Positions 15,569 through 55,665 of a stretch of 64,000 bases of DNA are shown here, piece by piece (positions within the stretch are counted from its first letter, which is position 1; each line of letters begins with the position of its first letter). Made by a program: the position numbers and the translations under genes. Source of the stretch: Shigella phage ESh19; the sequence record ON528729; one strand, given 5' to 3'. Below the pieces are notes generated by a model. The model searched no databases and had not been told where the DNA came from. It worked only from the letters and a program-made list of their open reading frames with translations.

Positions 15569-15588
15569 GGGAACCTTTTACAGTTCCC
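15569..15588 (-). terminator. rho-independent terminator (GGGAAC-UGUAAAAG-GUUCCC + U-run)
   Basis: stem-loop followed by TTTTTATTTT on minus strand. Confidence 0.55.
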
Positions 15589-15601
15589 TAATCATATACG
15601 T

Positions 15602-15913
15602 TTACTGAGCTATTTTCAAGACTTTTAAGAAACCTTCCTCACCAATTGCATCATAAACGTTTTCAGTTGGCTTGATAAGGTTGTTCAAGCATACAATTTT
15701 CTTACGCTTCTTGTCATAAGTAAGCTTCAGTTGTTTCAACTCTTTGTCATCTTCAGGGTGCTCGTTGTACATCTTCACAGCTTCTTTAAAGCTAATGTAG
15801 CCACCACCTAAAGTAAGGAAACCCGTACCACAATAGTGGGAGTTGTGTTTATCAGCCATAAACTGGCACAGGATAGAAATCTGAATTTTACGAGTGTTAT
15901 AAATCTTTTCCAT
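15602..15913 (-). CDS. hypothetical protein (103 aa)
   Basis: ORF. Confidence 0.45.
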   Translation of the reverse strand: MEKIYNTRKIQISILCQFMADKHNSHYCGTGFLTLGGGYISFKEAVKMYNEHPEDDKELKQLKLTYDKKRKKIVCLNNLIKPTENVYDAIGEEGFLKVLKIAQ

Positions 15914-15924
15914 TTTAGTAATCC

Positions 15925-16182
15925 TTACTTGCTACGTTTACGGTTGCGAGCTTTTTTAGCTGCACGTTTAATTGCTGCTGCACCAGTTTGGCGATGAGCT
16001 TGCTTCTTACCACCTTTACCACGTCCAACATGGATGTAAGGTTGCTGTTCAATCTGGCTTGCAAGAACCTGTGCAACTGCTGAAGCATCTACTCCAACCT
16101 GCTTACCAGTCATTGAAACGATAGCTGCTGCTTTTGCCAGAGCCGCTAAGAAACCTGCTTTCATGTTTGAAAAAATACCCAT
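15925..16182 (-). CDS. hypothetical Ala-rich protein with basic C-terminus (85 aa)
   Basis: ORF; C-terminal KRAAKKARNRKRSK. Confidence 0.45.
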   Translation of the reverse strand: MGIFSNMKAGFLAALAKAAAIVSMTGKQVGVDASAVAQVLASQIEQQPYIHVGRGKGGKKQAHRQTGAAAIKRAAKKARNRKRSK

Positions 16183-16197
16183 TTTAATATCTCTCTT

Positions 16198-16476
16198 TTA
16201 AAGTTTAATACAGAACTGGTCTAGTTCTTCTTTTTCAATACAGACTTGTATGTTTCCGTATCTTACATCAGTGAAAAGCATTAGTCCATCCCCAAGTGTT
16301 GATTTTTCTTCAACTGTGAATGTTACCTGCTTAACAAGTGCAGCTAAAGCCGTTAAGCCATTCTCACCAAATTTTTCTTGAGTATAAACCATCCAAGCAT
16401 CAAGCTTGTTGATGTTATAAATCCACTTACCAGAGTAGCTATTCTGCTCTCCATTGACAGTCGCCTTGCCAGCCAT
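16198..16476 (-). CDS. hypothetical protein (92 aa from ATG 16476)
   Basis: ATG 16476 with GGAGA SD; overlaps 3' end of nrdG by about 38 nt. Confidence 0.4.
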   Translation of the reverse strand: MAGKATVNGEQNSYSGKWIYNINKLDAWMVYTQEKFGENGLTALAALVKQVTFTVEEKSTLGDGLMLFTDVRYGNIQVCIEKEELDQFCIKL

Positions 16477-51922: not shown

Positions 51923-52728
51923 TAGTAAGTTCCTTTTTTGTTAGGGTTTACAGAATAAGTCTTCAGTGCATTACCTTCACCAGCAGTAATTGAGGACTGT
52001 CTAATTGCACTTGCAGCAGCAGCGTTAGCTTCATCACTAAATGATGTAACACCCTTTTTAGTATTTGCTGTACGACCACATACACCAAGTGCTTTTAATT
52101 CAGCAGGTGATAATTCCCTTACACCATTTGCTTCCAAGTCATATAATAGCTGACAGTTTAGTTTACCACTTCCAATAGATGTTGTGGTGTTACCTGTATT
52201 CTTCTTAGAAGTAACTCCATCGTCTTTTGTCGTTGCTGTTTTACCAGTTGCAGCAGAAACATCAGTTGTCCCAACTACAGCTTTAAAGTTAATTTCTTGA
52301 AAGGTCATCTGAATACGAAGACCGTTAGCAATTGTATGTTCCTTAGAAGCTTTAAACTGTGTAATAATAGAGTCATCAATCTTAATACCATCTTTGCAGA
52401 CAATTGAAATAATCTGCTTCTGGTCTCTCCACGTTTCAACTGTGCTAATGAAGTTCTCTACAAGTTGACCTTGACGAGTTAATAGAAGGCTACCTTCGTA
52501 GCCCACTACAACAACACCGCTAATGGAAATAGTCTTTGGAGAACGCTGTACGTTATCTGTGACTGTTTGACCACTTTGAACCGATTGAGTTGTCACCAAC
52601 ATAGGTGAGTCATACTCCATGTTTTCTGTTGCAGATAATGTAAGGAAAGCATCTACATTATCCCTCAGATGGAAATAAATACCATCCTTTCCAGAATACT
52701 TGATTTGCATGTTGTTATCCCATAACAT
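51922..52728 (-). CDS. hypothetical tail protein downstream of tape measure (268 aa)
   Basis: ORF. Confidence 0.45.
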
Positions 52729-54965
52729 TATTCATCCTCTGGGTAGCTAGAGTTTAACAGAATATCTTCCTGACTCTTATCAGTGATATCCACCATCTTA
52801 GTAGCAATCTGCTTACCATCCAGATTAAAGGAAACGTTAAGCGTCTGCTTAGTTTGCAATGGTAGTCCAGAGGGAGTCATCATCATAGGTGTCTGGTTAA
52901 ACTTGTTTGCAAAGTTATTTAGAGACTCAGACAGGTTGTTCATGATAATATCCCAATTTGACAAACCATTATCAACCCTCTGAATATTTCCAGAAGTGTC
53001 TGTGGTATATTGTGCAAACTGAAGTTGTCCATTCTGGTCAAAGAACATTGGACGTTTTGGATTAGTGATTCCTGAGATAGCTTCATTGAAAGGATTAGGT
53101 GTGTTAACCTCGTTAAATCTCTTTCCAGCATTCTTGTCAACTGAACCAGATAACATTAATGCAGAACCACCTACACCAAGAGCCATTCTGGTTGCTGATA
53201 CACCAGCCGTTGTAGCTGCTGTTTCTGCTGCTGTAGTTAACCCAAACTTCTGTGCAATCTTAGCTAAGATACCTTCTTCAAAAATACTCTTGACAAATGC
53301 TACAGTACCACCAAAGATTTTAGCAACTTTTGTAATAGCTGCAATTGAAACACCGATAGCGGTGAACGTAGCAACTAACTCAGCAGAGTCCTTGATTAGT
53401 TTCTGTTGACTAGCATCTAATTCCTTGAAATAACCCATTGAGGTGTAGTACAATGAAGAAATGCGGTACATGATATCTGTCACGAAATCTAGGAGGTTAC
53501 TAGCACCTTTTAAGAGGTAACCAATACCTGTACCAAGTGCTTCAGATGTACCAAGGGAACCTTGCAAGAACATTGCAACTGAGTTAGAGAGTTGTGAAAT
53601 ACCTTCGCTAGAGTTGTTAAACAAAGCTACAAGGGTGTTATCCCACATTGCCTTTGCTTGACCCATAGAGGTAGCTGTCTGCTTAGAAACTGCATTCATA
53701 CCACCTGCTGCTTCAACAAGCTCTCTCATTTTTTCTGAGACTTTTGGTAGAACGTCTTTTGCAAGAAGCTGACCATCTTTCATCATCTTGTCAAGTTCTT
53801 GTGGAGTTTTACCAATAGCATCAGCAAATAACTGAACAGCACCTGCCAAACGGTCACCTAACTGTCCACGAAGTTCTTCAGCCTGAATCTTACCTTTAGA
53901 TGCCATTTGCTGGAAAGCAACCATGATACCTTTCAAGTCTTCATCAGAAGCACCACGAATACGTGAGAACATAGCAGCATTCTTATAGAACTCTTGAGTT
54001 CCTTTAAAACCTAACTCTGGTTGAGCACCAGCAGCGAAGTTTGAGTACTGCTTCATAGTGTCTGTGTAGTTCTGACCAATCTGGTGAGAGAACGTAGCAG
54101 CGAACATTCTAGCTTGCTGTGTATCCCCTCCAAAGATAGCTGTTGAGGCTAACTGTGCAGACTGTCTCTTTACACCTGCATCAATAGTCTTCTGAGCTAA
54201 TTCCAGCATAGCATACGCTGAAACAAAACCACCTACAAGCTGTCTTAGTGAAGAGTTTGCTCTGTCTTGTAACCAAGCTGACTCTCTGACTGCCTTAAGT
54301 CTAGCATTTTCTGCAATAACCCAACGTTTGGTAGTGTCAATGAGTTTCTTGACTTCCATCTCATACTCACCAACTTTACCACTACCTTTGTACTTATTAT
54401 AGATTCCTTGTAAGCTTCCTCTGAAGGAAGTAGCCATTTGGTTACCTTGTCCACCAATTGTTTCAAGACGACGAGTCAAACCAGAGTAGAAGTTGTTATT
54501 AAACATTCTTTCCATTTGTCTTTGAGCAATATCAGGTCTAACTCTAGGTGAACCACCACCTCCAACCGGAGGGATAGTATTACCACGGCCTCTACCAACT
54601 CCACCACGAACATTAACTTTACCTTCAACATTCATAGCTTGTCTTAGAGCCTTATTAATCTCTTTGGCTGTTTTCTTACCCTGTGTTTCTAATCTACGAA
54701 GTGATTTTACACCTTGTGAATCTAAATTCATAGCATTGTTTAGGGATTTATTGATTCTGCCTGAAGCAGTCTGAGCGTTTTTTACAAGTCTGTTTAGAGC
54801 GTCTTGTGAACTTCTATTAGGCTTCACATCAAAGGCTTTATTGATATTGCGTTCAATACGTTGAGCAGACTGCATAGCCATTTTCTCAACTCTTTGCAAA
54901 CCCTTAATAACCTTTTCACTGAATCCAAGTTCAACAATAAAACTATCAACTGTATATTGTGCCAT
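52728..54965 (-). CDS. tail tape measure protein
   Basis: 745 aa, Gly/Ala-rich hydrophobic segments, preceded by chaperone pair. Confidence 0.7.
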
Positions 54966-55192
54966 TAAATTTTACCTGCTTTTCTGAGTTCGTTGTAAGC
55001 CATTTCTTCTTTATATGACTTCTGGATTTCTAAATATTGACGTAGAGATAATAAATCAACGAAGGTCATATCAAAAAGTTGGTTGAGTGTTTCTTTACAC
55101 CCATCCATACCATAAATAGCAAGCACAAATTTCATCTCATCTGCTTCATCATAAGTTGCCTTTACAGCCCCGTCAGTCAGCGGGGTCTGCAT
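54965..55192 (-). CDS. tail assembly chaperone, frameshift extension ORF
   Basis: -1 frame relative to 55201-55602 ORF; frame open upstream across slippery heptamer. Confidence 0.5.
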   Translation of the reverse strand: MQTPLTDGAVKATYDEADEMKFVLAIYGMDGCKETLNQLFDMTFVDLLSLRQYLEIQKSYKEEMAYNELRKAGKI

Positions 55193-55200
55193 AGAATAAC

Positions 55201-55602
55201 TTAAGCTTCCTGTTGAGAAGTTAGGCTTTTGAAAATGCTTGCCTCGAAAAAACTTCCGAAGTTTGCCTCCAAAGCAAAAGCTAAAAAGTCAATAAATTCA
55301 CCGTAGTTCGCTTGGAAGTAACTATCAATTTTCAGTGGGAAGTCATTAACTGTTGCCCCCTGAAATAGTGTCTCTGCCATTGCATCAATATCCAGTTCAT
55401 CAACCTTTTCAAAGCAAGCTTCTACAAGCTCTTTAAAGGGAACTTTCACCTCTCCATCTTTTGAGGTTAGTCCAGAGAACATCTGTGCAAATGCTGGTAC
55501 AACTGCTTTACCAAGCTTCATAGAGATACGGATACCATCTCTAGCTCCAAGAAGAATAATAGTTACCTTCTTGCCATTAATCATTTTAGTTTCAGTTTTC
55601 AT
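55201..55602 (-). CDS. tail assembly chaperone
   Basis: 133 aa immediately upstream of tape measure; contains T_TTT_TTC slippery site near 3' end. Confidence 0.55.
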   Translation of the reverse strand: MKTETKMINGKKVTIILLGARDGIRISMKLGKAVVPAFAQMFSGLTSKDGEVKVPFKELVEACFEKVDELDIDAMAETLFQGATVNDFPLKIDSYFQANYGEFIDFLAFALEANFGSFFEASIFKSLTSQQEA

Positions 55603-55639
55603 TGTGATTCCTTAAAAGTTCTGGTATAAAAACACAAAA

Positions 55640-55665
55640 GGGGAAGACCTTTTACAGTCTCCCCC
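55640..55665 (-). terminator. rho-independent terminator after tail tube gene
   Basis: GGGGGAGAC-UGUAAAAG-GUCUUCCCC + U-run on minus transcript. Confidence 0.5.

Follow-up and report, generated by a model that had tools for sequence, protein, structure and literature searches.

Four hairpins of Shigella phage ESh19 (sequence record ON528729) raise the question of why stem-loops at separate genomic sites should carry the same loop. A preliminary description of a 64,000-nucleotide stretch of this DNA, which was analysed at its full length and is referred to here as the window, placed hairpins with different stems and a common GUAAAA-type loop at 15569-15588, 21816-21836, 42642-42661 and 55640-55665, and all four (hp1 to hp4) were indeed present there. 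It went on to suggest that some protein or RNA reads this loop. We consider it probable instead that the hairpins are ordinary terminators and that their loops resemble one another through copying of hairpin cassettes combined with a preference for stable A-rich loops.

The anatomy and position of the hairpins are those of transcription terminators. Each occupies a short gap between genes and begins, as transcribed, 4-13 nucleotides (nt) past the stop codon of a minus-strand gene (13 nt for hp1 and hp2, 4 nt for hp3 and 11 nt for hp4). Taking a terminator stem to be a GC-rich RNA stem of ∼5-14 pairs that closes a short loop of 3-8 nt, we found that all four hairpins fall within this range: their stems have 7-12 pairs, of which 4-6 are G-C, their loops measure 6-8 nt, their folding energies are −11.3 to −19.5 kcal/mol and their z-scores −3.5 to −4.9. 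A U-tract follows three of them, reading UUUUUAUUUU after hp1, UUUUUUUG after hp3 (minus strand) and UUUUGUGUUUUU after hp4; the tail of hp3 on the plus strand is weak (UUAGCAUUAUUU), and hp2 is followed by UAAAAUUAAC, which contains no U-tract, so that hp2 is not a canonical terminator.

The individual sites are as follows. The predicted intrinsic terminator at hp1 (15558-15589, minus strand) consists of the stem-loop AGGGAAC-UGUAAAAG-GUUCCCU at 15568-15589 and the U-tract at 15558-15567. Its upstream gene spans 15602-15913, a GGAG ribosome-binding site and the ATG (15549) of the next gene come directly past it, and by the annotation of the related Citrobacter phage Michonne it sits between two hypothetical genes, upstream of nicotinamide adenine dinucleotide (NAD) salvage genes. 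The intercistronic stem-loop hp2 (21816-21835, minus strand; GAGGGUC-GUAAAA-GACCCUC) stands past the stop codon of nrdA (21849-24083) and ∼15 nt ahead of the GGAG ribosome-binding site of a small variable open reading frame (ORF). The predicted bidirectional terminator hp3 (42633-42663, both strands) has its stem-loop at 42640-42663, which reads AAGGCUCC-CGUAAAAA-GGAGCCUU on the minus strand and is followed there by UUUUUUU at 42633-42639, and presents the loop UUUUUACG on the plus strand; it fills the 37-nt gap between the convergent genes for thymidylate synthase (41731-42630, plus strand) and a putative holin (42668-43042, minus strand). The predicted intrinsic terminator or attenuator hp4 (55628-55667, minus strand) comprises the stem-loop AAGGGGGAGACU-GUAAAA-GGUCUUCCCCUU at 55638-55667, then UUGUGUUUUU. 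It separates the gene for the tail assembly chaperone (55201-55602) from one annotated as 'virion structural protein' (55679-56125), which follows the gene for the tail sheath. Its stem of 12 pairs includes two G.U pairs that form only in minus-strand RNA, the other strand having A.C mismatches at those positions.

Comparison with related phages indicated that three of these elements were already on record. Region 15000-23000 of the window matched 279 phage records, the top matches being the Citrobacter phages Michonne, Mordin and Maleficent (94% identity over 99% of the query) together with Shigella phages Sf13-Sf19, followed by Felixounavirus and Erwinia phages. By its sequence, then, the window is assigned to a Felix O1-like myovirus (Ounavirinae, near Mooglevirus), of which it covers 64 kb, with Michonne as the closest phage. 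The table of rho-independent terminators of Felix O1 (Whichard et al. 2010, Table 2) lists t124 as gggaactgtaaaggttccc, also given as gggaactgtaaaggttccctttttatttt, t64 as gggggagactttaaaaggtcttcccc, also given as gggggagactttaaaaggtcttccccttttttgtttctttt, and t79/t80 as a bidirectional pair, ggctcctttttacgggagcc and its complement ggctcccgtaaaaaggagcc (PMC3185647). On the basis of the same stems, flanking genes and U-tracts, hp1 corresponds to t124, hp3 to t79/t80 and hp4 to t64, and features labelled 'terminator' in the Michonne record (NC_028247) coincide with hp1 (6761-6780), hp3 (34532-34552) and hp4 (47540-47565). We therefore regard hp1, hp3 and hp4 as known, annotated terminators of Felix O1 and its relatives, as judged from these sequence matches. 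The remaining hairpin, hp2, has no terminator feature in the Michonne record and is absent from the Felix O1 terminators, which were predicted solely by TransTerm and MFOLD (PMC3185647). Compared with these annotated terminators, the loops of the window differ by 1-2 bases (UGUAAAG and UUUAAAAG in Felix O1), and the hp3 loop is oppositely oriented. The available parts of the Felix O1 paper (PMC3185647) and of the Michonne annotation do not remark on the common loop. Likewise, we found no account of GUAAAA hairpin loops in terminators in the literature on such loops; one promising match was dropped because it was an internal loop of the sarcin/ricin type.

Could the common loop be a pure coincidence of AT-rich loop composition? 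The preliminary description had argued that it was not, and our analysis bears this out. Four hairpins in which a stem of ≥7 bp encloses GTAAAA were observed, all on the minus strand, compared with a mean of 0.05 and a maximum of 2 in 300 dinucleotide-preserving shuffles of the window. Because real terminators exist, this null is too easy, and we therefore also used a harder one, in which 24 compact GC-rich hairpins past stop codons (coding strand) were kept and their loops alone were randomised. The probability that at least 4 of the 24 loops share any 6-mer was 4.5e-5 with pooled composition, 8.5e-5 with shuffling of letters within loops and <5e-6 with strand composition. Some features do make such a coincidence easier: the coding strand is rich in A, A makes up 42% of the pooled loops, hp1 and hp4 may belong to a single lineage, and the loop of hp3 is derivable from CGUA with an A-run added. 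Yet even with the biased loop composition as the null, the probability is at most ∼1e-4 for four hairpins, and with hp1 and hp4 counted once (at least 3 loops sharing a 6-mer) it is 0.0002-0.0075, so we consider coincidence very improbable. Local sliding-window folds of the whole window (≤−9 kcal/mol) gave ∼950 structures and were too noisy to define a terminator set, which was taken instead from folds of the 75 nt past each stop codon with a strict rule on stem plus U-tract; among the window terminators, UUCG was the commonest loop (4 copies) and GUAAAA the second.

A loop that is not shared by chance may still have no reader, and the relatives of the phage help to separate these cases. Two IMG/VR scans yielded 56 loci from ∼29 Ounavirinae genomes, covering all four sites. 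The stems were essentially invariant, the sole change in the hp1 stem being A to G with the pair retained as G.U. The loops, in contrast, differed. At hp1 they were UGUAAAAG (n=7), UGUAAAG (n=20), UGCAAAG (n=1) and UACAAAG (n=1), and at hp4 they were UGUAAAAG in 6 and UUUAAAAG in 18 of 24 relatives, a G-to-U change that allows a U-A pair to close a UAAA loop. The hp2 hairpin was kept in 27 of 29 relatives, with GUAAAA in 26 and AUAAAA in one; the other two (L016 and L017) had a GAAA hairpin there. In Erwinia phage phiEa21-4 (NC_011811), only hp3 is conserved, with stem and loop identical, and the hp1, hp2 and hp4 sites hold hairpins with different stems and the loops UUAAUU, UUAAGU and UAAG. 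A recognised hairpin should conserve its loop at least as well as its stem, and the loop should be its most conserved part; we found loops that vary or are inverted at all four sites, and the loop is the least conserved part of each hairpin. Judging from these alignments, it is the terminator function that has been conserved and not the loop sequence. The proposal of a loop recognised by a protein or RNA thus gains no support from the relatives.

The hp3 loop departs from constancy in a further way. In 14 of 28 genomes it is reverse-complemented between unchanged arms, reading UUUU(U)(U)ACG in place of CGUAAAAA on the same strand; as DNA, the two states, recorded in the window and in loci L032-L058 (at ∼16650-17300), are CGTAAAAA (n=14) and TTTT(T)(T)ACG (n=14). 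When these states were placed on a neighbour-joining tree built from 400 nt of flanking sequence on each side of hp3, at least 10 independent state changes were required, and two loci whose flanks are 0.4% apart (L050 and L058) carry loops in opposite states. A similar pattern was seen at a terminator at 11965-11988, for which we compared 28 relatives: on the coding strand its loop is CGUA in the window and 2 relatives and the stable UNCG-type UACG in 23, so the window copy carries the flipped tetraloop. Quasipalindrome template-switch mutagenesis is known in E. coli. Exact reverse complementation of the loop, unchanged arms and, at hp3, recurrence across the phylogeny identify both cases, on sequence criteria, as minute inversions between the arms of a perfect palindrome. 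We found no description of loop inversions in phage terminators in the literature. Since either orientation of the hp3 loop is tolerated on the late transcript, a required GUAAAA loop at this site is argued against.

These inversions show that the DNA arms interact, by template switching or by recombination within the palindrome, and thereby lend something to the idea that the elements act as DNA, in which case cruciforms or hairpins would signal recombination or replication and TTTTAC would be the loop that is read. However, placement directly past stop codons, followed by U-tracts, is what a terminator requires, and the flips are more simply a by-product of a perfect short palindrome. The structures are also clearly better as minus-strand RNA, the G.U pairs of hp1 and hp4 being A.C mismatches on the other strand: minus-strand and plus-strand RNA fold with −11.3 versus −9.2 kcal/mol at hp1, −12.6 versus −11.7 at hp2 and −19.5 versus −13.4 at hp4. 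Only hp3, which is transcribed from both sides, folds slightly better on the plus strand (−13.8 versus −12.5 kcal/mol on the minus strand). The G.U pairs and the change from A-U to G.U in hp1 are consistent with selection at the level of RNA, and a DNA-level signal seems to us highly improbable.

The two readings of hp3 bear on another possibility, that GUAAAA loops of minus-strand transcripts form kissing complexes with the UUUUUAC loop of hp3 from the opposite strand (or from the same strand if flipped) or with the U-rich anticodon loop of tRNA-Lys. In terms of sequence complementarity only, the plus-strand loop of hp3, being the exact complement of the minus-strand loop, does contain the complement of GUAAAA, as it would in any palindromic hairpin read on both strands, where such complementarity is automatic. 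A kissing complex of six pairs, of which five are A-U, would be very weak, the UUAAAA or GUAAA loops of relatives would lose the pairing register, and there was no covariation between sites. We regard kissing as extremely unlikely.

If the loop is neither a coincidence nor a recognition site, its sharing may reflect the history of the hairpins themselves. The preliminary description had called the stems different, and this holds in that at least three unrelated stems are involved; it does not hold for hp1 and hp4, which share the 12-mer ACUGUAAAAGGU (the loop plus three apical stem pairs), nor for hp3, the stem of which (GGCUCC/GGAGCC) recurs at two other minus-strand terminators, one with a UUCG tetraloop (5993-6014) and the CGUA-loop terminator already mentioned (11965-11988). 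The UUCG terminator with this stem indicates that the stem of hp3 belongs to the other, tetraloop family of hairpins in the window, and the hp3 loop itself is CGUA followed by an A-run, the length of which varies from 4 to 6 among relatives. A possible fifth member lies outside the range spanned by the four, at 3885-3907 on the minus strand (GGAGACU-UAAAA-GGUCUCU, with the weak tail UUACAAAAGC); it may be inside a 66-codon ORF and matches hp4 across GAGACU(G)UAAAAGGUCU. Also outside that range, at 2893-2935 (minus strand), we noted an orthologue of Felix O1 terminator t13, whose apical loop, UUUAAAAU, makes it another member with an A-rich loop.

Repetition of whole hairpins is common in this lineage. 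The window contains two copies each of GGGGCTGAAAAGCCCC and GGTCTCTTCGGAGACC, and phiEa21-4 has ten exact copies of the 17-mer GGGACTCTTCGGAGTCC, with 11 of its 13 annotated terminator features carrying a GGACTC-TTCG-GAGTCC hairpin. Such extreme homogeneity suggests copying or gene conversion of terminator cassettes. In the same phage, two GAGGGG-UUAAAAU-CCCCUC hairpins were observed past the stop codons of gp29 and gp30. At the hp2 site of L016 and L017, the GUAAAA hairpin is replaced by GGGGGCU-GAAA-AGCCCCU, which brings GGGGCTGAAAAGCCCC to that position; this cassette also occurs elsewhere in both genomes and twice in the window. A third family of hairpins, (A)GGGGCU-GAAA or ACAC-AGCCCC(U), was seen at 8985-9002, 13847-13862 and 45716-45733 of the window and at ∼8182 in L016 and ∼8220 in L017; its members are located past stop codons and have no U-tracts, and the cassette found at the hp2 site of L016 and L017 is one of them.

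We thus propose the following account, in which the activity of the hairpins and the origin of their common loop are what we infer from these observations. Once a gene has been transcribed, the GC-rich RNA hairpin and the U-tract after it, which make up an intrinsic terminator, destabilise the elongation complex. Read by host RNA polymerase, hp1, hp3 and hp4 would act as intrinsic terminators or attenuators. The first would end a small, functionally unassigned gene located upstream of the NAD-salvage genes; hp3 would act on both strands and keep apart two convergent transcription units, the late one (structural and lysis genes) and that for nucleotide metabolism; and partial termination at hp4 would reduce expression of the downstream chaperone and tape-measure genes. 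Most likely hp2 would be a barrier that stabilises the 3′ end of the mRNA, or else a weak site of pausing or attenuation. The intergenic hairpins of the lineage appear to behave as copied cassettes, the same 16- to 17-mers being found at several sites and one site having been overwritten, and such copying would account for the group formed by hp1, hp4 and the 3885 hairpin. In hp3, the loop resembles the UACG/CGUA loop of its sister terminator with a slippage-prone A/U run. Selection for stable loops on the transcribed strand would add to this, with G...A ends giving the best first mismatch, 3′ A's that stack and a coding strand rich in A. On the hp2 stem, the predicted stability with GUAAAA (−12.6 kcal/mol) is as good as with UUCG (−12.0) or GAAA (−12.4).

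Several observations weigh against this account. Loop sharing is statistically strong and extends over at least three unrelated stems, so copying alone would be insufficient unless the loop were somehow constrained, and the nearest-neighbour energy model prefers any G...A hexaloop, not GUAAAA in particular. A run of at least 3 A's on the 3′ side of the loop was retained in all variants at all four sites. The flipped state was found in 0 of 29 genomes at hp1, 0 of 27 at hp2 and 0 of 24 at hp4; hp1 and hp4 never flip because their wobble pairs would be lost, while a flip of hp2 is predicted to cost just 0.9 kcal/mol, and its fixed orientation despite this low cost may reflect some selection on the RNA loop. 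Lastly, a scan of 138 kb of AT-rich DNA from unrelated phages (the first 50 kb of T4 and five AT-rich viral contigs) gave 29 terminator-like hairpins, none of which had a GUAAAA loop. The GUAAAA-type loop is therefore specific to the Felix O1-like lineage in the samples scanned and not a general preference of enterobacterial phage terminators. Cassette copying, loop stability and the A-rich strand together remain the best account, yet they do not fully predict GUAAAA.

The same observations are those that favour a binding site. According to this alternative, the A-rich loop, with the consensus N-Y-A-A-A-(A), is bound on nascent or finished RNA by a phage or host protein, which could be an antiterminator, a termination enhancer or a factor for mRNA stability or processing that coordinates the four sites. 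A shared loop on unrelated stems, its invariant A-run, its restriction to one lineage and the three unidirectional sites that never flip though hp3 flips often all suit such a protein, and the temporal control of Felix O1 and the read-through of its many terminators have been described as unexplained (PMC3185647). Against it, the first two positions and the length of the loop differ among close relatives, two phages have a GAAA hairpin in place of hp2, three of the four sites bear different loops in phiEa21-4, and hp3 is tolerated in both orientations on the late transcript. No candidate protein was identified (no protein search was aimed at one) and no Rfam family matched. We consider a binding protein unlikely; the A-run that never changes and the absence of flips at unidirectional sites lead us to leave a small residual chance that the loop is recognised by a protein or RNA.

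One form of this idea deserves mention, although we judge it decidedly doubtful. In Felix O1-like phages, the N-Y-A-A-A-A loop would be a tag by which a phage or host factor tunes termination, read-through or mRNA decay at a subset of terminators, which might be those after the small gene ended by hp1, nrdA and the structural gene next to the tail sheath gene and at the boundary of late and nucleotide-metabolism genes. Fixed loops at the unidirectional sites and free flipping at the bidirectional one would then reflect selection on the transcript. Felix O1 is reported to have no phage RNA polymerase and no T4-like modifiers of the host polymerase (PMC3185647). If the loop were read by a factor, this would bear on how Felix O1-type phages time transcription through many terminators, and the tag would form one element of the temporal control, so far unexplained, in a phage without its own RNA polymerase or sigma factor. 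Three other proposals were dropped: a −35-like TTTACA box on the plus strand, as no plus-strand gene lies close by and hp2 and hp3 do not share the motif; a DnaG CTG priming site in the loop, as CTG occurs in hp1 and hp4 only; and a CsrA or Shine-Dalgarno-like AAGG in the 3′ arm, which hp2 does not have.

Some further features of the window were recorded. Its G+C content is ∼39%, and minus-strand genes occupy 1-33000 and 42668-64000, with plus-strand genes at 33132-42630. A scan of the whole window with Rfam at gathering thresholds gave zero matches of any kind, tRNA included, so the tRNA cluster carried by Felix O1 and phiEa21-4 must be outside the window. Four copies of a ∼55-nt repeat are located directly past stop codons on the minus strand (609-652, 1212-1254, 1560-1602 and 2029-2071). 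The repeat consists of TTTACATGGGG(C/T)TTA, a loop of 10-11 nt and TAAGCCCCAGATAAAGAGCTTTAC, and TTTAC(A) motifs flank its hairpin; the whole may represent an early-region unit of promoter plus hairpin.

As it stands, the finding of four hairpins with one loop has little significance of its own, the elements being already listed as terminators for Felix O1 and relatives. Its wider use is as a caution: a loop common to several hairpins of one genome can be non-random and yet no recognition site, because in these phages one site acquires its terminator hairpin from another as a copied cassette, and comparison with relatives quickly separates a copied loop from a recognition site. The frequent flipping of hp3 offers, in addition, a neat natural illustration of how a palindrome mediates minute inversion in phage DNA, and it warns those who build phylogenies from alignments that one flip mimics many substitutions.

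Known systems offer three points of comparison. The boxB hairpins of lambda-type phages have a GNRA-like pentaloop, GAAAA or GAAGA, that is bound by N protein. They resemble the present hairpins in their short stem and purine-rich G...A loop, and the GUAAA of the Felix O1-type hp1 loop fits G-N-R-N-A; the hairpins described here differ in being terminators themselves, rather than sites downstream of promoters, and in having loops that are not conserved among orthologues. Also comparable are the C(UUCG)G hairpins that Tuerk et al. reportedly described in 1988, together with the UUCG and GNRA tetraloop terminators of T4 and E. coli. There, too, one loop recurs on unrelated GC-rich stems, and its stability explains the recurrence with no reader needed; several UUCG terminators are found both in the window and in T4. 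GUAAAA, unlike these tetraloops, is a hexaloop with no documented extra stability and is restricted to the lineage in the samples scanned. Finally, Kelchner and Wendel are said to have described, in 1996, minute inversions of hairpin loops between short inverted repeats in non-coding chloroplast DNA. The loops of hp3 and of the terminator at 11965-11988 behave in the same manner, being exactly reverse-complemented with unchanged arms and recurring across the tree, and what sets the hp3 case apart from the chloroplast inversions is that it concerns a bidirectional terminator of a phage.

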